Source: Mytilus trossulus (taxonomy: Eukaryota). From it: 64,000 nucleotides of DNA. The position numbers and the translations under genes are program-made. This document shows, in pieces, positions 1,438 to 54,600 of this stretch (its first letter is position 1; each line of letters opens with the position of its first letter). Below the pieces are notes generated by a model, which had not been told where the DNA came from, did not search any database, and saw only the letters and a list, made by a program, of their open reading frames with translations. Location of the stretch: NCBI RefSeq assembly GCF_036588685.1, contig NC_086373.1, positions 103,912,001-103,976,000 of the forward strand, in the 5' to 3' direction.

Positions 1438-1535
1438 AATTTAAACATGGCCTGGGCCGTGATATTCGAATTTTATCCTGAGCGTTAGTGAGGGATAAAA
1501 TTAACGAATATCACCGCCCAGGCCATGTGTAAATT
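1438..1535. repeat. Long imperfect hairpin, probably the terminus of a non-autonomous element
   Basis: AAACATGGCCTGGGC..GTGATATTCG..AATTTTATCC-TGAGC GTTA GTGAG-GGATAAAATT..CGAATATCAC..GCCCAGGCCATGT. Confidence 0.85.
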
Positions 1536-3011
1536 TCCAACGATCTATGGCTTCCATGAATTATTTCGATTCTAATAGGTTTCATTTGTATAACTTCATG
1601 TTTTGAAATCAGACTTAAATGCGCCAAAAAAATAATAGACAGGAGCGGAATTTTATTTTATTTTTATTTTGTTGATTTCTCCGAACTCTTGTGCATTACT
1701 GCTTTTTATTAAGCACCGAAAAGAATAACAGTTATTTTGTCTTTTTTTAATTGCACTTTTTAAATCAATTAAATCGGCAAAGGGTCTGCAAATAGGTTCC
1801 AATACATGTAGATTTACGTGGGAAGTATATTGTAACAGCCATTATTATGTTTACCTCTGAGTCTGCGCTAAGTATAGATATATCGAGAATTTTATCACAG
1901 TGTTGTTTACAAAGCGAAAGAAGCTTGTCATACATTGTCATATAAGAATCTATTTTCAACTTTTATTAGTATCACAGGGTCCTACTAAAATGCACCCGGG
2001 AGAAGAAAAAGCGCCCGAGGAAAAGAAAAAGCGCCCGGGGAAGAGAAAAATAGCGCCCGGGGAAAAGAAAAGGCGCCCGGGGGAAATATATTTAAACATT
2101 TTATTGGCATGAGACAACTTTGTCATCTTTGTGTCGATGAAATAAGTTATGCACATTGATCTGTTTTTAATTTTAGACAAGTAATTTGCAAATTCAGATA
2201 ATAGACATTTGTAGTAAAGCACTAAAATAAGTATGAATGTTTCAATCTTAACAATACTGAATATATGAATACTATTTCGAAAGACAGTTAATAATGGATC
2301 ACAGTTTATGCGGAAGATTTATAGAATGTAACTTCAAAAGACACGTTTTTGAAAAACGATATCAAAATGAAAACAATGTAAAAAAAAAAACTTAAATTTC
2401 ACAGATAAATATTAAATATAATCAAAATTAAAAGAGTTACACATAATAAATCACTTAATAAAGCAGTACTATACATGTGATTTTTTTAAAATTCTGTGTT
2501 ATATAATTCATCATAAATTATTGGGATTTTACCCTTTTTCTTAATTGGGGCTAGTTAACAGGGCTTTAACGCTCTTTCGTGAGTGGGGTGAGTTGGTTAA
2601 ACAGAGTGGAGTGATTTTTTAGAAAGTGTACAAGTTGGAAAACAAGAGTGGTCAAGTTGGAGACAAAGTTAGGCGATTTGGTGAGGGCCAATTTGGCAGT
2701 TGGACTATTGGTCGTGCTTCCAAATAATTGTTGTAAAATTTCAAACTTTTTGCAAATAGGAAATGGCTTAATCTTGTACATGGCAGAATTAAAAAATGCT
2801 TATTTACTTAAACTACATATTATAAAACTGCAGACCACACATTCAATCATCCCCATCATAGGACAGGTTTGGAAGGTCTGCGGCAACCCTCATAAATGGG
2901 TACCAGTGTGAGATCCTCCCAACTTGTAGATGCCAAAATAACTAAGTTTACATTCTGACAGCCAGATGGACAGATCAGCAACCCAGGAAATAAATTGTTT
3001 GCATATATAGT

Positions 3012-6135: not shown

Positions 6136-6445
6136 AGTAATCAAATCATTGTTTATACTTTGTGCTATGCCAAATTATGACATATTTACTGTCAGATCAA
6201 ATATTTTCATAAGTCAAATGAATTCGTACTCTGTATGCTTTTTCATTGGAAAATATTGCCCCCAATCACTTTTGCCCTGATTCCATTCCTAATGTGAGGC
6301 AGCTAGTGTTAAAAGTCTTTTACATAGCTCTTGTTAATCAGTCTAACTCTTGTTTTGTAGTTTTGAATATGATTATGTGAGTAATCAAATCATTGTTTAT
6401 ACTTTGTGCCATGCCAATGACATAATCGTCAGATCATATATTCAA

Positions 6446-6837
6446 TAGACCACTTTCGAGCTCATCCGTCACCGGAAAAAACTCGTCAATTATACGCGCC
6501 TTTATCACCGTCATTTTTGCGTTTAGGGGCGTCGTCACTTCCTTCCAATGTTGAGCGAGTGGTTGGAAAACTATAATTCTATATTGTACGAATTATTCGG
6601 CAAATTGAATTCTCAAAATTGACAATCAACACTGCTGTCATTAGGGAATTGTCAGTAAGTACCTACAGAGCAACCATTATTTCTAGTTTATCCTGCACAA
6701 AGACGATCACTAAGACGCTTGATGAACGTAAATAGTGCAGGGATACAGGCGAGCCCCTCTATCTGGTAAGTGACGTCATAAAGGCGTGCATAATTGACGA
6801 GTTTTTGCCGGTGACGGATGAACTCGAAAGTGGTCTA
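6446..6837. mobile_element. MITE with about 60-bp TIRs (TAGACCACTTTCGAG...CTCGAAAGTGGTCTA)
   Basis: Clear inverted ends flanked by TTCAA on both sides, abutting the LINE tail. A degenerate related left end lies at about 23718-23910. Confidence 0.8.
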
Positions 6838-8143
6838 TTCAATTCAATTCAAAGCTTTATTTATAGTCGGCATGTCATATAACAAATAAACATAAGCTCT
6901 CTGAGCTTTTATAACTGACAAACGCATACATTTACATAACAATCATACACAATACAAATATTAAAACATAAAAGACATAGAACATACATTTCATGCACAT
7001 TTAGGCTGCACTATTAAATACTATATTATAAACATGCATAAGCACTAAAAGCAAACATAAAAACTAAAGTATAGCATTCACAAATTATAAAAAGCTTAGC
7101 AAACATTCACAAGAAGCAGCACTATTATATTTCAAGCTATAACACAAAATAAATAAAACTATGCACATGCGTTGCAATGGCATGAGTTGCCATTCCATGA
7201 GTTTATTAGACTCTTGAATTGGGTAAAAGATGTTTCAGTTCTAAAGTGGTTTGGCAACTCATTTCATAGTTTGGCAGCAGAATATCTGAAAGATTTCAAA
7301 CCATACCTTGTTGTTCTTACGTCTGGTATTTCAGCTAAATTTTGGTATCTGAAAGAATATTTTGTTTTTTTAATATTTATAAGGTCATGGAGGTATACTG
7401 GATTTTCATGATTGAGTGTTCTAAAGACCTCTATTGCCATGGTTCTTAGGCGTCTTACTTTAAGTGATGGCATTTTTGATTTTAAAAGTAAGTCTTCATA
7501 TGTGCTGTTGTGATCCTGGTAAATGAAGCGAAGTGCTCTTTCTTGTACTTTTTCAATTTTTTTAGTGTTGGCCTCGCTGCAGAAATGCCAGGACAATGAA
7601 CAGAAATTAAAGTTTGACATGATAAAGGAGTGATATATTGTTAATTTTCCAAGTTTGTTTAAGTATTTGCCAAGTCTTTTTAATACATTTACAAATGTAG
7701 TTGTCTGGATGCTTTTTGCAGATGTTTCATATATGCGTGTTGAAATTTAGTTCAAAGTCAATGGTGATGCCTAATAGTTTGACCTCTTTTTCACATTTTA
7801 TTTTGTTACCTGCTAGATCAAATGTAATGTTTTTGCCAATTGCCAAAGCTTGAAATTTTTCAGGGTTTGCCTTCATTTGATTGGAAGAAAACCATTCTAT
7901 TAGAGCCAAACTGTCTTTTTCAAGTGTGGAGATAACGGTGTCTATATCTCTATTTGCATAAGATAATGTGTTGTCATCAGCATAATTGTAGAGTGAACTG
8001 TTTGTGGTGAAGTGAAATATGTCATTAATGAAGATGTTAAACAGTATAGGACCTAGAATAGAACCTTGTGGTACTCCTTTGTATATGTTTTGCCAATTGC
8101 TCAGACTAGAGCCAATTCGAACTCATTGTTTCCTGTTAGATAA

Positions 8144-25306: not shown

Positions 25307-25451
25307 ANNNNNNNNNNNNNNNNNNNNNNNNNNNNNNNNNNNNNNNNNNNNNNNNNNNNNNNNNNNNNNNNNNNNNNNNNNNNNNNNNNNNNNNNNNNNN
25401 NNNNNNNNNNNNNNNNNNNNNNNNNNNNNNNNNNNNNNNNNNNNNNNNNNN
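25307..25451. other. Assembly gap (N run)
   Basis: Run of n characters. Confidence 0.99.
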
Positions 25452-32800: not shown

Positions 32801-35800
32801 AACGAGAAATGAAAAACACGTATATATTACATAAACAAACGACAACTACTGTACATCAGATTCCTGACTTAGGACAGGTGCAAACATTTGCAGCGGGATT
32901 AAAAACCCTTTTTTAACAGAAATAAACTCTTTTGTAAAAGTATTTCAAAAGATTTGGTTTGACGCGAATTAAGAAACATCAATCCGTTTAACTATTGTTT
33001 GTATATGCCTTATTTGTGGTATCAATTGTCGTGAAAATGTGAATCGATTTAGTTAATTTCTTGACTATTTTCCACTAAGATAATAAATAAATTAAACAAA
33101 AATTCGATCGCTCACTATATATAATATATTTATGATTAATTTTTCATGTTCGACTGAGAATCGTGTTGAACAAAAAGTATTTGTGTTTAGGGTTTCCTCC
33201 CTAAAGTTCGGTTTTCTTCAATTTGCTGATTTTCAACCTTTGTGTAAATGGAGAACTGCAGTTTTATCACGAGTAACAATCAAAAGTGTCTGGTATACAT
33301 TTTAGCAAATTGATTTTGGTTAGTAGGAATACATTTATATCAAGTTGTGTCTGATTATTCTGCCGACTAGCTCAAAACATAATCTGATACCTTTAGACCT
33401 TGCAGAAGTTTTGGCTTTACATGTAATGAGTGCTAATTTTCCTATTATAAGTTATGTAATTAAAAAAATAACACTGAAAAGTTGTTTTAATATTGCCGTG
33501 AAGATTTTTTGCATTTATGGCCATATACCATAAAATTCATATCAAATTTCTGATTTTGATTCATTAAAAAAAAAGAAATAACAAAAATACCGAACTCCAA
33601 GGAAAATTCAAATCGGAAAGTCCCTTATCAAATGTCAATACCAAAAGCTCAAACACATCAAACGAATGGAAAACAACTGTCAATTGAATTGTTGCCATGT
33701 GATACATTGCACATTCGGATCTCACCTGTCTGAGAAATAGGTTAATCGTATCTTCTTGTTCACAAATACAAGCTGACATGAATGCTGTTTGACCTTTATT
33801 GTCTTGTAGATTTATATCTGGTTTGAAGTTTAAGATTGTTTTCAAAAGAGCTAGACGTCTAGTAGGATCGAACACTTTCCGCACACAAACCATTAGTAAT
33901 GTCTCAGATAAACTTTTACTGTTAATGTCAATCCATTCTAACATAAGATGAACCTACAATAGAAAAGAAATATATTCCGTTATGCATTCTGTGATTATAG
34001 ATAACACAGAAGTATTATGGTATCAAATCTTTGGATATTTCAAGTACTGGTAGCATGAGTGTTAAATCTGATTTTATGCCAACCCAGTAAAGTTTCAAAT
34101 AAAGCTGCAAGATATACAAACATCTGGTTGATGAAAAAACAACTTGGCATTTGTTTAATCAACATAGAAGATATATAAAGCATGAACCCGCAATCATGCG
34201 AACAGACAATAAATGTCTTTTGTCCGGCGTGGGACGTTTGTGCTTTTACATATGACGTTTGCGCTAAATGTTAAATGGACACTTGCGCTCATTTCATATG
34301 ACATTTGCGATTATATAAATGACATTTGCGCTTTTATGGTATTTACTTCTCATGACTTTCATCCTATTTTATCCGGGCTTTGGACCTGGTAGAGTTAAAT
34401 AAAAAAAGTCGTATTTTTTAAATTATGGTTAAAAGTCATTTCGAAGCACATTCATGTGTGTAAAAGTCTTTTCATAGCACATTTAATTTAGTTTGTTCCT
34501 TATTCGGCGCCGTCATGATACTTTTCTTTTACTACCTTGGTGTAAACAATATTTTATTATGAATTATACAAGTGCATTTTATACATGTTAAAACGGATTA
34601 AAACAAGCAACAAGTGCTTATCTTCTCTTACTATACCTTAATATCGTCCATAATATGCATCTGATATGTGTCATTGAATGTTGATTTAGCAATCAAACAA
34701 TCAACAGTAAAGACTTTTGTCATATAGATCACTATTGGCGAAAGCGGTGTAAACTATTTGTACAAAGCTATATGTTTCATAAGATAGAAGACCAGGACTC
34801 TGTATACCTTGTATCCAGATACATTAGGCTACAAAGTTTAAGTTTGTCATATGTCCATATCCATTGACTGCTTGTAATAATATATTTTTTGTCGTATAAA
34901 TTCAAAGACAAATCGAAGTCATTTTCATTGTGTTTTCAAATGAAATGCAAATAACTTTACAGGTAAGTCTTTGAATGTATACGACAAAAAAAACTAAAAT
35001 GTAAATATTTGACTTAGATTGATTAATGGAAGTCATTTCAGACTTTCTCAAATCGAAGTCATTTACATTTGTGTTTTGAAATGAAATGCAAATAACTTTA
35101 TAGGTAAGAGAAAGTCTGAAACGATTTCCATTATTAATCAATCTAAGTCAAATATATTTACATACAGATTATTATTTGACTATAAACACTTTTTATAGAT
35201 TTTTATAGTTTAGTATTTGCTACTATTCAATTCGAGTCGATATCTTGAGATAATGAAATGATTCAGAAAAAGGCCCGTCCTCTGTTCTTTACCAATGCAT
35301 AGATTAATACCATCAGTTACAAAAAAAATATCAGTAATTACGATGATTTTAAAAACAATGAGTTAAAAAAATTGAATGGTCGGTGCTTGAGACGATAACT
35401 GAGTTTTTAAGTGGTATTTCTGTTCATTATTATTTGCAGAGATATATCATGAAATACATGTCACTGTTATGTGTTACCAGAATATGTTTTATGGAATGTA
35501 ATGTAATGGAATTTGATGCAACTGCCATACAAGTGAGAGGTTTAGCTAGCTATAAAACCAGGTTCAATCCACCATTTTCTACACTAGAAAATGCCTGTAC
35601 CAAGTCAGGAATATGACAGTTGTTATCCATTCGTTTGATGTGTTTGGACTTTTGATTTTGCCTTTTGATTTTTGATTTTCCTTTTTGAATTTTCCTCGGA
35701 GTTCAGTATTTTTGTGTTTTTACTTTTTTTTTATGACCAATAGCGTCAGCGCTTAGCACAGTTAAGGATTATTTTTGATAGGGAAATATATTTTTGCAAC

Positions 35801-38800: not shown

Positions 38801-40590
38801 TACACATTGCTCTCTCAAATCATTAAATAAAACAAATACTGCCTTTTGTCTCGGGTAATAATTAAGCGATTTAATTAACTTTTGAAAAGAAGTAAATCCC
38901 GAATACCCGGTATCGGTCAATAAATCCTCAACGAACGGTTATTGTATGATGTTGTTTTTCGAATACAAGCAAGAGTCAAACTTCATTTCAAAATGTCTTT
39001 CGCAGTAGCAATGTAGTTTCATTGCATACGGGGTATATATCTCCCAATTGATACGATATTCCCGTGCTTGCATTTCTTATCATGATTTTCTTGATAGAGG
39101 ATTACTGCTCACAAGGAAGCTATTAAACCAAGAGTTCCAAATGGTGAAGTTGAAATCATCCCTTCGTAAATTTTACGGACGCCATCACGAGTTGGTTGAC
39201 CGTTATGGAATAACCGTTTCACAAATGATATCGGATATGTTCCTTACGTCGTAACTACAATCCCCTTCCCTACATGAATTTGACCTACCGAATTAGACTA
39301 TTTACCGGATTTGTAATCACATAAGCAACACGACGGGTGCCGCATGTGGAGCAGGATCTGCGTACCCTTCCGGAGCACCTGAGATCACCCCTAGTTTTTG
39401 GTGGGGTTCGTGTTGTTTATTCTTTAGTATTCTATGTTGTGTCACGTGTACTATTGTTTTTCTGTTTGTCTTTTTCATTTTTAGCCATGGCGTTGTCTGT
39501 TTATTTTAGATTTATGAGTTTGACTGTCCCTTTGGTATCTTTCGTCCCTCTTTCATTGAATATTCGAAATCGTAAAAAAATATTTTAAGTTTATGATACA
39601 GACTCTCCATAACATTCAATTTTCTGTAAGATTTTACCATGCATCTTAAGTTTTGAACGTGAAAGTAAAATAGATACAGGCAATTGCTTACATCTAAACA
39701 GACTTTTTTGTTAAATCTTGAGACAAATCTAGATGAACATAAATGCTTTTGCAAGCGTTCTTGCTTGGTAGTATACTGGTATACATACTGACATCGTATA
39801 TGCATCGAACTTGTAGGAATTCACTGTTCAGTTGTTAAAATAAAGAAAAAAATTGGACGTTATGTCAAAATATGATATTACACTTCTTTATCAAATATAA
39901 CAAACTTTAAATTGTTTGTTTTTTACTACAAATACTTTTATTTCAGTAAAACCAATATATTTTTTTCTCCTTCTATTAGACTTAACGAGACTATGTATAT
40001 ATGGGAAATAAAGTACATAGAATTACTGAATAATAATAAAAACCAATATATTTTTTTCTCCTTCTATTAGACTTAACGAGACTATGTATATATGGGAAAT
40101 AAAGTATATAGAATTACTGAATAATAATAAAATGTCAAAAAATTATCTTCATCGGCTATATCGTTAAAATGTGCATTGCATGCATGCTATAGTATTGCCT
40201 AGTCTTTGAAGTCGGAGTTTGTAACTCTATCCAAATATCATTTTAAATATTAGTGTATAGCAATATAATATTTCTCACAGAACGTAACCAAAAACTAGTG
40301 CAATAAATCTTCAAATTCATGACGTCATCAACGTTTAAATCTTAGTTTAAACCAATTTTTACTTTCAAATATTATATTGCTATACAATAAAAGGGTTATT
40401 GCATGAATATTGGGGAATATTATCCCTCGTAGAACATATATTGCACTCGCAAGCTCGTGCAATATAAAATTCTACTCGGGACAATATTCCCCAATATTCA
40501 TGCAATACCCTATAATATTATTTGTAATTAATTATTTCTACTAACCTGTCGAACACTTCCATTTTGTACAATAAGATCAAAAACACTCAT
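29884..40590 (-). CDS. Ankyrin-repeat protein with long low-complexity basic C-terminus (about 490 aa, 3 exons)
   Basis: Exons 40590-40546 (MSVFDLIVQNGSVRQ; in-frame TGA upstream; least certain), 33953-33726 and 31083-29884, all phase 0. Ankyrin motifs: DINLQDNKGQTAFMSAC, VNITDNDGFTGFMYACETGNKNLVKLLV, INCDGKTALQIV. Confidence 0.8.
38201..38454. mobile_element. MITE with TGTCGTGTACAA...TTGTACACGACA ends, TA flanks
   Basis: About 45-bp imperfect TIRs with many internal TGTACA motifs. Confidence 0.7.
39023..39550 (+). mobile_element. Penelope-like retroelement 3' fragment
   Basis: AYGVYISQLIRYSRAC...LLTRKLLNQEF...LKSSLRKFYGRHHELV resembles a PLE RT C-terminal region (recognition from memory). 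A degraded relative lies at about 31290-31520. Confidence 0.65.
39947..40131. repeat. Direct tandem duplication, about 91 bp x2
   Basis: TAAAACCAATATATTTTTTT(T)CTCCTTCTATTAGACTTAACGAGAC...GAATTACTGAATAATAA occurs twice, nearly identical. Confidence 0.9.
40393..40510. repeat. Long imperfect hairpin, probably an element terminus
   Basis: GGGTTATTGCATGAATATTGGGGAATATT...GCACTCGC AA GCTCGTGC...AATATTCCCCAATATTCATGCAATACCC. Confidence 0.85.
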
Positions 40591-41453
40591 TATTATTCCG
40601 ACACTCTTTCAAAAAGTTGTGTTGAAAAGTTTTCCAAAGTCATTCTGTTTTCTAGACCAACAGCATTGTGATCTGAATTTTTCCATCAAAATCTATCTGA
40701 ACAGGAATACAGACGTAACCTTTCATGAAGCTATTTAATCAAACTTATGGTCACTGACGTGAACATTATGACGAAAACAAAATCAACATTTATGTAAAAC
40801 TTTTGAAATCGATTTCCATGTAGATATATTGTCTTGAATATTGATCATATGCACTTTGCATTAGGTAAATCAATGGCTTGGTGGTACCAATTACTTATTA
40901 TTCTATATTCTATACTTGTTCTTTTATGTCACTGCGGTTGTTTTAAATTTACTTGTAAGTAAATATAGTTGTTCATCTAATCCAACGATTTTTTTTTATA
41001 TTGGTTGGAATTTCCATATGTTTTTGTTAAAGTGAATCGATGGGACACTTTGGTTTGATTATATGCCTGGTTATCTGACTTTAAAGCTTGAATTTAGGCT
41101 ATTGTGTTTTTTCCTATTTAATATATGAAAAAAAAGATGAAATTGAAACAATGAACTCTTCACAAGAGACGAAATGACACAGAAATTAACAACTATAGGT
41201 TACTTTACGGTCTTCAACAATGAACAAAGGCCATAGAAAACTAACGACCTTACCAATGTACAAAACATATTGAGAGGGATCCTGACCCTCTCTTAATCTG
41301 AGACAATGGTGTAACAGTAAAACTTGAGAACGATTTATAAAAATCCTTTGGCTCTACTCATCAGATGGATACCATTAAAAATATGTCTAAAAAAAAAAAA
41401 CACAGAGTGGACGTGGTCGGGTACTTGTACATCCCAACATCAGAAAGACACTA

Positions 41454-41893
41454 GAATCATATTCAAAACAGTGTGGTCCTGGCCATTGATTGACGACTTA
41501 AATTATCCCATTGACTGGGACAGATTAGGTGAACGTGTGTCGGTAACAATCACTGCTCAATATGTACTTGTTAAAGACACTGAATCTGTGGAGTCACCAA
41601 AGGTTCTCAACACCTAAATAAAGCAATTCGAAAAACGAATCCGGAATAATACGATGTGTTGATTTATATTAATAATATAAATCAAAACATGAAGGTTATT
41701 CCTGAATAATTTTCGAATTATTTTATTATTAAAGGCGTTTAGAACCTTTGGTGACCCCACAGTTTAAATTCTATAATAAGCAAGAAGTGTGCAATGGTCG
41801 TTACAGACAAACGTTCACCTAATCTGTCCCAGTCAATGGGATAGTTTAGGTCGTCAATCAATGGCCAGGACCACACTGTTTTGAATATGATTC
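41454..41893. mobile_element. Foldback MITE, about 190-bp TIRs, TA TSD
   Basis: TA|GAATCATATTCAAAACAGTGTGGTCCTGGCC...GGCCAGGACCACACTGTTTTGAATATGATTC|TA. Splits a host repeat whose uninterrupted form is visible at about 60773-60800. Confidence 0.85.
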
Positions 41894-43700
41894 TAAGTAC
41901 ATATCTGAGAGAACTGATATCGCAGTTACTGACAGTTACTTCAAAGAGAATAATAACTATCAAAGTCCACTTCATTAATTGTCTCTCCTCAACTTGTTGG
42001 ACGCGACACAAATGCCATTGAACGATCTCTCATCGACTAAGTAAAATGGTTCAGCAATTCAATATTCCACAAAATCCCAACTGATTCAAGGTTTATGATT
42101 TTGTTTTATAAAAAAGAAGATTGCCAATTAGACAACTCTTAACAAGAGATCAAATGAAACAAAAATTAACATATTAAGGTCAACATACGGCCTTCAACAA
42201 TGAAAAAAACCAATACCGCAGTCAGCTATAAAAAGCCCCGAAATCACAAATGTAAAACAATTAAAATGAGAAAACTAACAGCCTAATTAATGTACAAAAA
42301 ATGAACGAAAAACAAATATGTAGCATGTTATGAATCTTTTATCGCCTATATCTAACCTGTAAGGTTAACTTTGTTTTCCTTTTTGCTTTTCAAACAGACA
42401 AACGAAAACATTGCTTTTCTTTAATAGATTAGAAACAAAAAGTGTTTGAATTTATTTCGGAACGACTTCTCAATGCATGCATGAACCAAGGTTTTGATGT
42501 GTGTTGGGATATAACCGAACAACCGACATTATACAGTTGCACTTTTAAATTGGGCATTTGTCATTTACGTTGGTTGCATATCATTTATAATTTCTAGTTG
42601 GTATCAAGAACTGTTTCACATTTTGTCAGAACGAAGTTTTTTTTTTAACAAACTATACGGTATGGATTTTGTTATTTTGTTTAATCCGCTGCCTCGTGTA
42701 AAGAGAATGCCACACTATGTGGGCGTTAATAATGCTGTCATCAACTCTTTGAGGGATCCGAATTTGACCTGTTACAAAATTTGTCACTATCCAATATACC
42801 CTAATTTTCTAGTGACAGTTCAATTTTCCCCAACGGCTTCTATTACAGGACCTATACATATTGTATTCATTGTAAGTTTAATTTTTCCTGAATATGCATG
42901 AAATATTTGCCACTGGACGTTAGACAATCAGAAAGCAGTGACGGGACTAAACGTTTTTGGAAGAAGCCGATCTGACCACGTTCCTATGTACTGATCTGGT
43001 TCCAATATGACCGAGGCTTAACACTTTGAAAATAAAACATAGTACCATAGAAACTAAAATGGCACACAAACATACCATACCAACTATCATTAGGAACTAT
43101 TCTAGTGAAGGTAAATGCAGAAAAGCCCTCGGATGCATGAAATTTATAAAGTGTTATTTTTATGTCGTTGTGTTACTGTTTCGTTGACATACATCCCAAA
43201 ATCTCGTTAGAAAGTGGATGGTAAGATCAGGTAACTTCAACTTGATGATTTGATATTAATGACATATGTGGACTACTTTCACCTAAAATGGTTTATTTTT
43301 TTCAAATTGTGACTTAGATGAGAGAGTTGTCTCATTGGCTCTCATACCACATCTTCTTATATTTATTATTTGGACCCTGTATGATTGTTGTCTCATTGGC
43401 ACTCATATCACATCTTGTTTCTACATATTGTACAAGTCAAATAATACAAGCTTTAACAAATTCTATCAACCAGCATAAAGATTGCAAAAAGGCATATAAA
43501 TGTATGACTAAATACGTTATTTTTTTGAAATGTGATAGAATAAATAAAAAAAAACATCGGTTGATTATAAATCCATTTTTTTGTTTATAAAATTAACATA
43601 TTTACAACTGATTTAAAATATTCAAATGATTTTAAAATATCTAAAATAATAAAATATCAATATAGCACCAAATGTTAGAAATAAGTTTGTGTAATACTCT

Positions 43701-50930: not shown

Positions 50931-51637
50931 TTATATCCATGGGATAGTCGACTACCCATTTGTAATAATCTAAAAAGTGCTTGTGCAAGTCAATCATCAT
51001 GAGAATACACATTTTAATATGACTATTTGTTCTCCATAAATAGACATCACAGGAAAAGTAATATTTAAGAATTGAATGCTTCTTTTTGTAAATTTATTGG
51101 GGTGTAAAAGCGTTGACCGAGGTACATTTTGTATTAAGCGCGGAAGTTACAAAAAGAAGCATTCAATACTTATAATTACATTTTTTTAGCTAAGATCATG
51201 AAAACACGATTGTTATCCAGTTTTATTTAATTCACCTGTGCACTTTATTATGGGACCTCATGTCATCATGCATGATAAATGTTATTGTCTCATGCAATTG
51301 TATACGGAATAACATGTGATGTGCTGTTAGTCAATCAGAATAACGTATTATAATGAAACATACATCTAATGTAATTATTGTTGTATGATGTTAAAAAGTT
51401 CAAGCGGGACAGATTCTCCTGTCAAAAAGGACAGATTTCCAAATAGCGATTAGGTGTATCAGTTAAAGATGCATACTATACTTGCTTTTGGCTGTGTGAA
51501 ATGTACAATTATGTAGCCATGTCTGGTTATAATGGGAAGTTCTGGACGTTAAATTGCCTTTTGTAAGAAAGTGTCATGCTTTTGTCACAATTCAATACAT
51601 GTAGTCTGTACATGTATATTATTTAATATTTTTACAG

Positions 51638-54600
51638 AGAAGCACATCAAACAGTAAACTGACAAGAAAGTCATCAGTTAGTAGAAGGAAATCTGTGACT
51701 CCTTCATCAATAACCAGTGACAAACAAGTGGATACTAACTATGTTTCAAATGATACAACTTCCACAGTTCAGATTCATACTGCATACTCACGTTGTAACA
51801 AAAGTGATGCATCATCCACTGACATTTCTGTCAAGCCATCAACAACTGTTCTTAATACTGAGAATTATAATGTATCCTCTCCTGCATCATTTACAAGTGA
51901 TAATTTTAACATTGATCTAAGAAGTCCAAGAAGTCGTAAATTAAGCAGAGCCAACACACAAACAACTGATGTTAGAACACCAGAGACCTCTCCATTTGTT
52001 AACAGTGAAGTTTTCATGCCATTATCAGTGGATACACCCCCAACTGCCTCACTCATTACAGCTAATGATGATGATGATGATCTACCTGCTACTCAAATGC
52101 TGGATAACAGAGTATTGAAAAGTATGTTATGTAAATCAAACTGTATAATTATGTAATGATATACAAATTTACATTGTTACATTAGTTGCATAAGTACACT
52201 TTGTATATATAATTGGGCATTACCATACATCATTAATTGAATGTGTACTGGTAAAGATATGATTTTTCCATGCTGAAGATTGTAGGGTGGGACAAAACAT
52301 TTGGAAGATATCATTGGGGTTGAGTATTCATGATGCAGTTATAAAACAAGATATATTTCAGATGCAATAGCATAATAAAACATGATATTTTTCAGATGTA
52401 ATAGCATCAGTTATATCGCATAATATATTTCAGATGTAATAGCCTCAGTTATATCGCATAATATATTTCAGATGTAATAGCCTCAGTTATATCACATGAT
52501 ATTTTTCAGATGCAATAGCCTCAGTTATATCACATAATATATTTCAGATGTAAAAGCCTCAGTTATATCGCATAATATATTTCAGATGTAATAGCCTCAG
52601 TTATATCGCATAATATATATATTTCAGATGTAATAGCCTCAGTTATATCACATAATATATTTCAGATGTAATAGCCTCAGTTATATCACATAATATATTT
52701 CAGATGTAATAGCCTCAGTTATATCACATAATATATTTCAGATGTAATAGCCTCAGTTATATCACATAATATATTTCAGATGTAAAAGCCTCAGTTATAT
52801 CGCATAATATATTTCAGATGTAATAGCCTCAGTTATATCACATAATATATTTCAGATGTAAAAGCCTCAGTTATATCACATAATATATTTCAGATGTAAT
52901 AGCCTCAGTTATATCACATAATATATTTCAGATGATAATATATTTCAGATGTAATAGCCTCAGTTATATCACATGATATTTTTCAGATGTAATAGCCTTA
53001 GTTATATCACATAAAATATTTCAGATGTAATAGCCTCAGTTATATCACATAATATTTTTCAGATGTAATAGCCTCAGTTATATCACATAATATTATTAAT
53101 TCGTATATTTTAACAAATTTGATTCGTTTAGGGATAGTCACATGTTAAACTATATTTTCGAAGGTAGAGAGAAAACGGCGGATAGCAAAAAGCATATTGA
53201 CCTGCAAAAAGCATATCGCACGGATATTTTTAGAATATCTAAAAACCGATATACTTTGTGACGTCATGTAATGAATTTCAGGATATTGTTTAACGTTTTG
53301 AAACACATGATATCTGTGATCGATTATTTGACGAAAAAAATCTTCGAATACATATATAAAAAAAGTAAATGAAATAACAACTAATATGTTGTTATTGTCA
53401 AGGACACAATGTAATATCCATAAAATTCCAACAAACCTAAATGATGATTTTAATACAAATATGGTCGGAAATTAATAATATAACAAATATAGCCTTTGTA
53501 TGAGGTCAATACAGGATATATCGACCCAAAGAAGTATATCGACCTCGGACTTCGTCCTCAGTCAATATACTTCTTTCAGGTCAATATATCCTTGTATCGA
53601 CCTCATACAGAGGCTATATTTGTATAATATATTTCAGATGTAATAGCCTCAGTTATATCACATAATATATTTCAGATGTAATAGCCTCAGTTATATCACA
53701 TAATATATTTCAGATGTAATAGCCTCAGTTATATCACATAATATATTTCAGATGTAATAGCCTCAGTTATATCACATAAAATATTTCAGATGTAATAGCC
53801 TCAGTTATATCACATAATATTTTTCAGATGTAATAGCCTCAGTTATATCACATAATATATTTCAGATGTAATAGCCTCAGTTATATCACATAATATATTT
53901 CAGATGTAATAGCCTCAGTTATATCACATAATATATTTCAGATGTAATAGCCTCAGTTATATCACATAATATATTTCAGATGTAATAGCCTATGTAGAGG
54001 TGAGATCCACTAATGACAACAGAAGTGATGCTATTCGTAAAGAATTAGAACACTTAGGAGCCACAGTGACAAAGAAATTCACAGAGGATGTCACCCATGT
54101 TATCTTCAAAGAAGGCAGCAAGAGAACAAAAACCAAAGCTGCTAAAAATAAATGTCATCTGGTGTCAGTCCTCTGGGTAGACAGGTAAAAAAAGAACAAA
54201 AATAAAACTACTGTACTAGGGTGATGGGTAGACAGGTAAATAAAGAACAAAAATAAAACTACTGTACTAGGGTGATACATGTAGATAAAGAGCACAAATA
54301 AAAACTACAGCTGATATCTGTAATGGGTAATGGGAAGGCTAGAAATAAGAACAATAAAAATTCATACGTCAGTATTGAATGTAGTCCAATAGAACAGAAA
54401 ACCTACTTCACACTACTTTAAACTTTCTCGTTTCTTTATTCAGTTTTAAGTATGACAGACAGGTAAGAATAATTCAACAGCTACAAAAATTGTACAAAAT
54501 AACTAAAATTCTATGTTTTCAATTGTAGTTTTGTATAAATCAAATAGACTAGAAATTAAATAACAAAAAAAACCATTAACATATATATATATGACATAAC

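Follow-up and report, generated by a model that had tools for sequence, protein, structure and literature searches.

The attP site of the CTX phage, like the attC sites of integrons, is a recombination site formed by a folded strand. At attC it is the folded bottom strand that undergoes one exchange, which is resolved by replication with duplication of the cassette as the result (PMC5027507, PMC3458562). Animal Cryptons were described by Kojima and Jurka in 2011 as elements without terminal repeats, for which a circular double-stranded model is cited (PMC3212892), and Eulor5/6 have been assigned to Crypton (PMC5753468). In an active algal CryptonF clean excision goes together with a gain of copies, termed a complex mode (PMC9977147), and the accessible text on Starship circles reports these without hairpin or strand analysis (10.64898/2026.09.21.753150). 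A 2026 review states the Crypton mechanism to be undemonstrated (PMC13565253). How a Crypton moves has never been shown, and the accepted model of a cut-out circle cannot alone account for copy gain. No description of GA/GA hairpins or of a folded-strand route for Cryptons was found in the literature searched, to whose scope Repbase, Dfam, Repbase Reports, Goodwin 2003 and supplements did not belong.

Here, we describe three elements (A, B and C) in a window of 64,000 nucleotides from Mytilus trossulus (contig NC_086373.1, positions 103,912,001 to 103,976,000). The hairpin elements are non-autonomous CryptonA derivatives, in the case of A very probably so, and represent a variant within a known kind; our analysis makes it likely that the Crypton tyrosine recombinase acts on one strand folded back on itself. 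This strand, which reads GA on both sides of an internal loop beneath the hairpin tip, is hereafter called the GA strand.

53090 to 53626, minus strand: element A, non-autonomous, 537 bp without a coding frame (family median 544)
53483 to 53623, minus strand: hairpin of A, placed 5'-terminally on the GA strand; folding energy -52.1 kcal/mol (minus strand) and -45.6 kcal/mol (plus strand)
53545 to 53559, minus strand: tip of A, a GA/GA 2x2 loop, a 4-bp stem and a GNA triloop (53551 to 53553)
40250 to 40514, minus strand: element B, non-autonomous, 265 bp with an internal deletion (family median 295 bp)
40393 to 40510, minus strand: hairpin of B, with GA/GA loops at 40447-8/40455-6 and 40427-8/40476-7
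1438 to 1948, plus strand: element C, lacking part of its hairpin end and some internal sequence (family median 934 bp)
1438 to 1535, plus strand: remaining portion of the hairpin of C, with a GA/GA loop at 1480-1/1490-1 and a GNNA tetraloop

The hairpins each form one terminus of a dispersed element of high copy number, and in A, B and C alike this terminus is the 5' one of the GA strand, which is the minus strand for A and the plus strand for C. An earlier note on this DNA had described hairpins of unrelated sequence with a common symmetric 2x2 loop, two to four base pairs under the apex. All six of its dinucleotide coordinates were confirmed in the letters, the loop is present in the folds of all three hairpins, the apical loops on the GA strand are cGAAg, cTTg and GTTA as described, and the three families share at most a 23-nt similarity at chance level. 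The limits that it gave for the hairpins of A and B stand, while 1438 to 1535 proved to be a truncated copy of a C hairpin that measures about 163 nt at full length; the second loop of B (TC/TC at 40427-8/40476-7) had been overlooked. On the GA strand, A and C close the outer side of the 2x2 loop with a T.G wobble pair. Hairpin A is far more stable than shuffled sequences (z about -14, none of 200 shuffles being as good), and the ViennaRNA energies are no measure of mini-hairpin stability because the program leaves two-pair tips unpaired on some strands. In DNA, tandem sheared G.A pairs are stable, as is the C(TT)G loop. Mini-hairpins with GNA and GNNA loops are likewise of high stability in DNA and of much lower stability in RNA, and the tip of C has the two-pair GC stem of the type called most stable (PMC13037366). 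Unlike the mini-hairpins described there, those found here sit at the top of a long transposon-end stem that contains tandem G.A loops. An RNA role for the hairpin was rejected, the loops being of DNA type and Rfam giving no match in 52300 to 54300.

Three of the eight long hairpins of the window have the GA/GA loop under the tip, and the other five are without the motif. Among the further repeats of the window, 41452 to 41895 and 6440 to 6843 are long, MITE-like inverted-repeat elements with arms of 126 and 69 nt and no GA/GA tip, and 34885 to 34991 and 35005 to 35155 form an adjacent pair of related fold-back elements with irregular tips. A decayed hairpin element at 51054 to 51386 is 78-86% like repeats in the loci L161, L173 and L177, which have long hairpins with a GNA tip and without a GA/GA loop; it is possibly another Crypton end type. 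A run of 144 N occupies 25308 to 25451.

A first look at the 1.3-Gb genome gave 971 candidate copies of A, 1503 of B and 881 of C, of which 40 were scored per family; read depth across the elements is very high, depth not being equal to copy number. When copies were compared, as the earlier note had proposed, both GA dinucleotides were kept in 22/22 copies of A, 33/33 of B and 29/29 of C, a sample of top-scoring copies from a tip search with at most 3 mismatches that is biased to intact ones. Tandem arrangement was found in 8/32 A and 3/62 B copies having both ends, and two A hairpins apparently without a far end were ordinary copies (one checked, one listed at full length). The claim that the elements are TIR-less was borne out: A, B and C have no TIRs at both ends and no true duplication, and the ends of B and C are shared with recombinase elements. 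A TIR DNA transposon, which would have TIRs at both ends with duplication, was accordingly rejected, and Helentron/DINE-1 and MITE readings were ruled out by the end structure and the partner enzyme. The bodies of A (53259 to 53266), B (40320 to 40327) and full-length C copies contain the same 8-bp CRE-type palindrome, a candidate only, which may be due to chance.

Long copies that carry the same hairpin and code for a tyrosine recombinase, which the earlier note had suggested looking for, were found for families B and C. Element C matches the 3.05-kb elements L162 and L156 at 74% over its first 192 nt and at 95% over its last 37 nt, and B matches the 2.8-kb element L141 at 83% in the hairpin and at 25/27 nt of the far end. 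The partner proteins match DUF3504 and Phage_integrase, and the catalytic residues R179, K213, H306, R309, H332 and Y341 are kept in at least 90% of 67 aligned sequences. The structure model of the partner recombinase has a pLDDT above 90 across most of residues 20-350, and in a fold search with this model the nearest solved folds were those of Cre, with no particular likeness to the integron integrase (2a3v at rank 45). Homologs bear the names KIAA1958-like and ZMYM2/QRICH1-like, and the nearest named homolog of one recombinase is a Mytilus protein (96%). In the DUF3504 search 150 of 341 candidates were scored and 100 windows of 8.5-10 kb were taken around the matches; no partner for A was present in about 100 10-kb windows and 60 shorter loci drawn from those scored DUF3504 candidates and from protein-search and Phage_integrase loci. 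The end geometry of A equals that of B. B and C are almost certainly Cryptons, and A is very probably one as well. The earlier note had allowed for either an HUH nuclease or a Crypton-like tyrosine recombinase. The second is upheld by both ends of B and C being shared with DUF3504-coding elements, and the first is not supported, five frames of at least 100 aa, scanned inside two partner elements, having held no Rep/HUH domain. Nor do the hairpin elements form a separate class, as had been proposed, since they are non-autonomous Cryptons, A very probably so.

In the multi-copy recombinase families Y2, Y4 and Y5, and in one Y3 copy, the hairpin is located at the element boundary. Hairpins also occur within an intron in Y1 and Y3, and none was seen at those ends of Y1 elements that were located. 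The orientation of the GA strand relative to the gene is not constant among families. Recombinase genes in L121-L124 and L128-L130 have an intron with one to three GA/GA hairpins, which in Y3 have the opposite orientation to the terminal hairpin. An intact recombinase element of 3661 bp is present in three tandem copies in L125-L126 (G000:C8:8980600-8991600); these are 99.7% identical, which indicates a very young family. A family B copy is nested at an equal position in two copies of another hairpin-ended recombinase element (L149 2770-3090 and L154 2815-3135).

The ends of the elements share one anatomy. An inverted copy of the far end lies behind the hairpin and forms, with the hairpin base, a mirror of the joined-end sequence. 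On the GA strand the joined ends of A, B and C alike read as a box, a 7-nt spacer and an inverted box, and the mirror has a spacer of 5 nt. The boxes flanking the spacers are short and AT-rich.

53616 to 53626, minus strand: 7-nt spacer of A (53620-6) and inner box (53616-9), with a putative cut between 53627 and 53626
53470 to 53490, minus strand: mirror of the joined ends of A, with a 12-nt match to the far end (53470-81), a 5-nt spacer (53482-6) and a box (53487-90)
53090 to 53101, minus strand: far end of A, a box and a short arm able to pair with the mirror
53080 to 53089, minus strand: target half of A in the satellite, with the second box (53080-3) and a 6-nt spacer (53084-9), and with 53627-30 as the first target box
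52336 to 53991, no strand assigned: satellite array with a 38-bp unit, hosting A; each unit carries a target of two boxes at a 6-nt spacer (box-6-box)
40367 to 40399, minus strand: mirror of the joined ends of B, with a 24-nt match to the far end and a 5-nt spacer (40391-5)

The two-base deficit of the mirror was also seen in several recombinase-coding families, judged by eye in those rows that could be read, the automatic far-end finder being unreliable in many rows.

In the rebuilt target sites, after removal of tandem-joined and duplicate ones, the second box was found at a spacer of 6 nt in 76 of 105 independent sites (A 22/24, B 39/53, C 15/28), a spacer of 5 in 4 and a spacer of 7 in 8, against a background of 12.5%. 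A fresh set of A copies, obtained with an end-blind query, had the spacer of 6 in 16/19 sites and those of 5 and 7 in 0/19 each. The element spacer was retained at the hairpin end in 122/124 copies (A 23/24, B 52/53, C 28/28, fresh A 19/19) and exactly followed the far end in 1/124 (A 1/24, B 0/53, C 0/28, fresh A 0/19), and its retention at the hairpin end fits the exchange of a single strand only. The crossover is fixed to one bond in B and ambiguous by at least one shared base in A and C. Identical 7-mers flank only 7/21 copies of A, 6/33 of B and 0/28 of C, and a target duplication model was rejected on these counts. The 7-nt match at 53087/53624, which had been regarded as a junction repeat, is instead target microhomology, neither a target duplication nor a fixed terminal repeat, and arises from a fortuitous match between satellite target and junction. 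The satellite unit contains a perfect box-6-box target for family A, and excising 53090 to 53626 in silico leaves one exact 38-bp unit. Once inserted, a copy has such a box-6-box site at its own far end. In run X1 one contig runs from one flank of a C copy into the other and is shorter by exactly 935 nt net, as predicted, with one differing base; it is a single contig with 20 nt on its short side, and to that extent weak. At L063 1462-1464 the empty allele of this run differs from the filled one two bases ahead of the cut, a position at which the filled allele agrees with the element box; the difference is either a polymorphism or target conversion at insertion. A BRCT exon (53994 to 54185, plus strand; Pfam PTCB-BRCT, 1e-12) follows immediately downstream of the satellite and element A, which are probably intronic. 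We take this exon to be microcephalin-like.

With one detector, long hairpins with a GA/GA loop were found in 43 of 99 recombinase windows (two adjacent windows being counted once), with 28 distinct tips, and twice in 399 kb of background from which A, B and C had been masked. Control loops were rare in the same windows, with AG/AG, GG/GG, CA/CA and AC/AC in 0/99 and AA/AA in 4/99; the 56 windows without a GA/GA match may be too short, contain decayed copies or have other end types. None of 24 other tyrosine recombinase loci had such a hairpin within 1.5 kb. The GA/GA hairpin also occurs in two of four metagenome contigs that encode a related recombinase, and the design is thus not limited to this genome. 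Among closed 2x2 loops GA/GA made up 22/67 in 78 hairpin clusters, from loci that are enriched for recombinase neighbours and not random, as against 4/49 in long-spacer inverted repeats, a BLAST-based tally in which loops close to the tip are missed and the control may include split Crypton arms.

That folding is specific to one strand, as the earlier note had inferred, is supported by covariation in the stems and by a wobble bias on the GA strand. Between the C stem and that of L162, 15 pairs have changed on both sides and are still paired and 2 are broken, and for L194 the numbers are 25 and 1; L160 gave 16 compensated and 15 broken pairs, and the B stem against L141 gave 5 and 7, the broken ones in these two comparisons being partly alignment shifts. 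Compensatory changes could also come from arm-to-arm repair. In 27 clusters, one of which is a false match (a tandem repeat, L176) and among which there may be related families, single mismatches elsewhere on the GA strand were G.T in 17 cases and A.C in 3 (p about 0.003, computed by hand). Further 2x2 loops on this strand (23 in all) were GA/GA in 5 cases, GA/AA in 5 and TC/TC in none. Tip loops were GNA or GNNA in 16/27 clusters, the same loops as in the DNA mini-hairpins (PMC13037366), and their complements in none. The inner stem varies from 1 to 6 pairs across clusters, which a rigid double-stranded binding site would presumably not permit.

These observations may be accommodated by a model in which the GA strand becomes exposed and the GA/GA loop with its GNA or GNNA cap nucleates folding. 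The fold would create a two-box recombination site with an unpaired 7-over-5 spacer and boxes at about the distance found in the target. A single strand exchange with a double-stranded box-6-box site would then excise or insert a single-stranded circle, and the junction would be resolved by replication, with the donor retained in one of the two daughters and a gain in copies. The products observed are exactly those predicted if the GA strand is exchanged at the spacer's 5' edge; had the other strand been exchanged, the element spacer would lie next to the far end, contrary to what is found. As inserted copies offer a box-6-box site at their far end, excision could use the same geometry, and tandem copies would follow from the use of that site as a target. 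The tip lies 60-90 nt from the putative cut and hence beyond the reach of a core dimer; the cap probably nucleates and marks the fold, which is the least supported step. We hold it quite likely that the recombination site is folded, if a cruciform is included, and assign a probability of roughly 0.64 to a folded GA strand that recombines as a free single strand with a duplex target.

The same Crypton could use the same 7/5 site as one arm of a cruciform that a supercoiled duplex circle extrudes, without any free single strand. Once the element is circular, joined ends, hairpin and mirror make up one palindrome of 150-200 nt, and the target and strand-bias data all fit equally. A cruciform nevertheless accounts poorly for excision from the chromosome, given a distance of 0.3-4 kb to the far end, and for the rise in copy number, and both of its arms would bear a site while a single outcome is observed; we regard it as unlikely. 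Recombination may also be of the classical double-stranded kind (Goodwin model), the hairpin having another job, such as the priming of circle replication or protection against nucleases, or being kept paired by arm-to-arm repair that the tandem G.A pairs escape. The joined ends by themselves do resemble a two-box recombinase site, and the predicted fold of the recombinase is Cre-like. Double-stranded exchange by tyrosine recombinases normally needs matching spacers, however, and the donor spacer of 7 and the target spacer of 6 differ in length and sequence, so that they presumably could not pair as duplexes. Two-strand exchange would moreover leave the element spacer at either end, not at the one end where it is found, and a mirror shorter by two bases is left unexplained. 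GNA-loop mini-hairpins are known from phage and plasmid priming sites (PMC13037366), as a priming role would have it, and taken together we consider the double-stranded route distinctly improbable.

Movement by an HUH nuclease, by a peel-and-paste route like that of IS200/IS605, Helitrons or Replitrons, would agree with strand-specific hairpins, the lack of duplication and similarity 5' of the cut, all of which IS200/IS605 also have (PMC13565253). A tyrosine recombinase is nevertheless the only enzyme found between matching ends, the palindromic two-box target with a 6-nt spacer is the pattern of a recombinase dimer, and the fuzzy ends or variable duplications of Replitrons (PMC10288648) are not seen. 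This makes HUH-driven movement very unlikely, with an HUH gene acting in trans as a conceivable case, most of all for A. Chance mismatches in fold-back repeats or MITEs would explain why five of the eight long hairpins of the window lack the motif. They are next to impossible to reconcile with the keeping of both GA pairs in all copies examined, the bias to one strand, the 22/67 against 4/49 closed loops and the 43/99 windows against 0/99 for AG/AG, and were rejected.

If the reading of a folded, free GA strand is true, there is a eukaryotic recombinase for which the insertion of single-stranded DNA requires neither spacer homology nor double-strand breaks. The anatomy described here specifies which strand is involved, where it is cut, how the donor folds and how the target is spaced, and with intact enzymes and matching ends supplied, the Crypton mechanism becomes approachable with oligonucleotides and one purified protein. 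The GA/GA tip and the mirror junction also provide a sequence-independent means to recognise and delimit animal Crypton families. We lean, by a small measure, to the wider view that animal CryptonA recombinases are eukaryotic single-strand recombinases which take a 7-over-5 folded strand into a degenerate box-6-box site without spacer homology, by a copy-out route that arose apart from those of integrons and the CTX phage and was also used in the ancestors of human DUF3504 genes.

Eulor5/6 are presumably hairpins with a similar tip. With CryptonA and its non-autonomous derivatives (PMC3212892; Eulor5/6, PMC5753468; Glomhopper, PMC13465315) the present elements share, in the partners of B and C, a DUF3504-type recombinase with intact catalytic residues and no additional C-terminal domain, and further the lack of TIRs and of true duplication, many short non-autonomous copies and target microhomology. 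The terminal GA/GA hairpin, the mirror junction and the 7/5/6 spacer rule, all seen here, are absent from the accessible CryptonA texts, and the Glomhopper paper, as far as available, does not mention a hairpin or palindrome (PMC13465315). IS200/IS605, Helitrons and Replitrons likewise combine strand-specific hairpins with copy gain and no TIR (PMC13565253, PMC10288648). Unlike them, the elements described here have no HUH gene between their ends (five frames, two partner elements), a hairpin of 100-190 nt and a two-box target; unlike the Replitron, they lack fixed terminal direct repeats, a fuzzy right end and variable duplication (PMC10288648). Integron attC sites differ in that the present system is eukaryotic, with one site per element made from both ends and the mirror, no conserved AAC triplet R boxes in the junctions and no cassette array; tandem G.A loops replace defined extrahelical bases, and the modelled enzyme appears nearer to Cre. 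The folded substrate has been demonstrated for attC and IntI and is one that we infer here (PMC5027507, PMC3458562). In both systems unrelated sequences are held under one fold, one strand is favoured through unpaired features, and an unpaired spacer lies beside the cut with microhomology only; a single exchange with a duplex partner, as at attC, would follow for the Cryptons as well.
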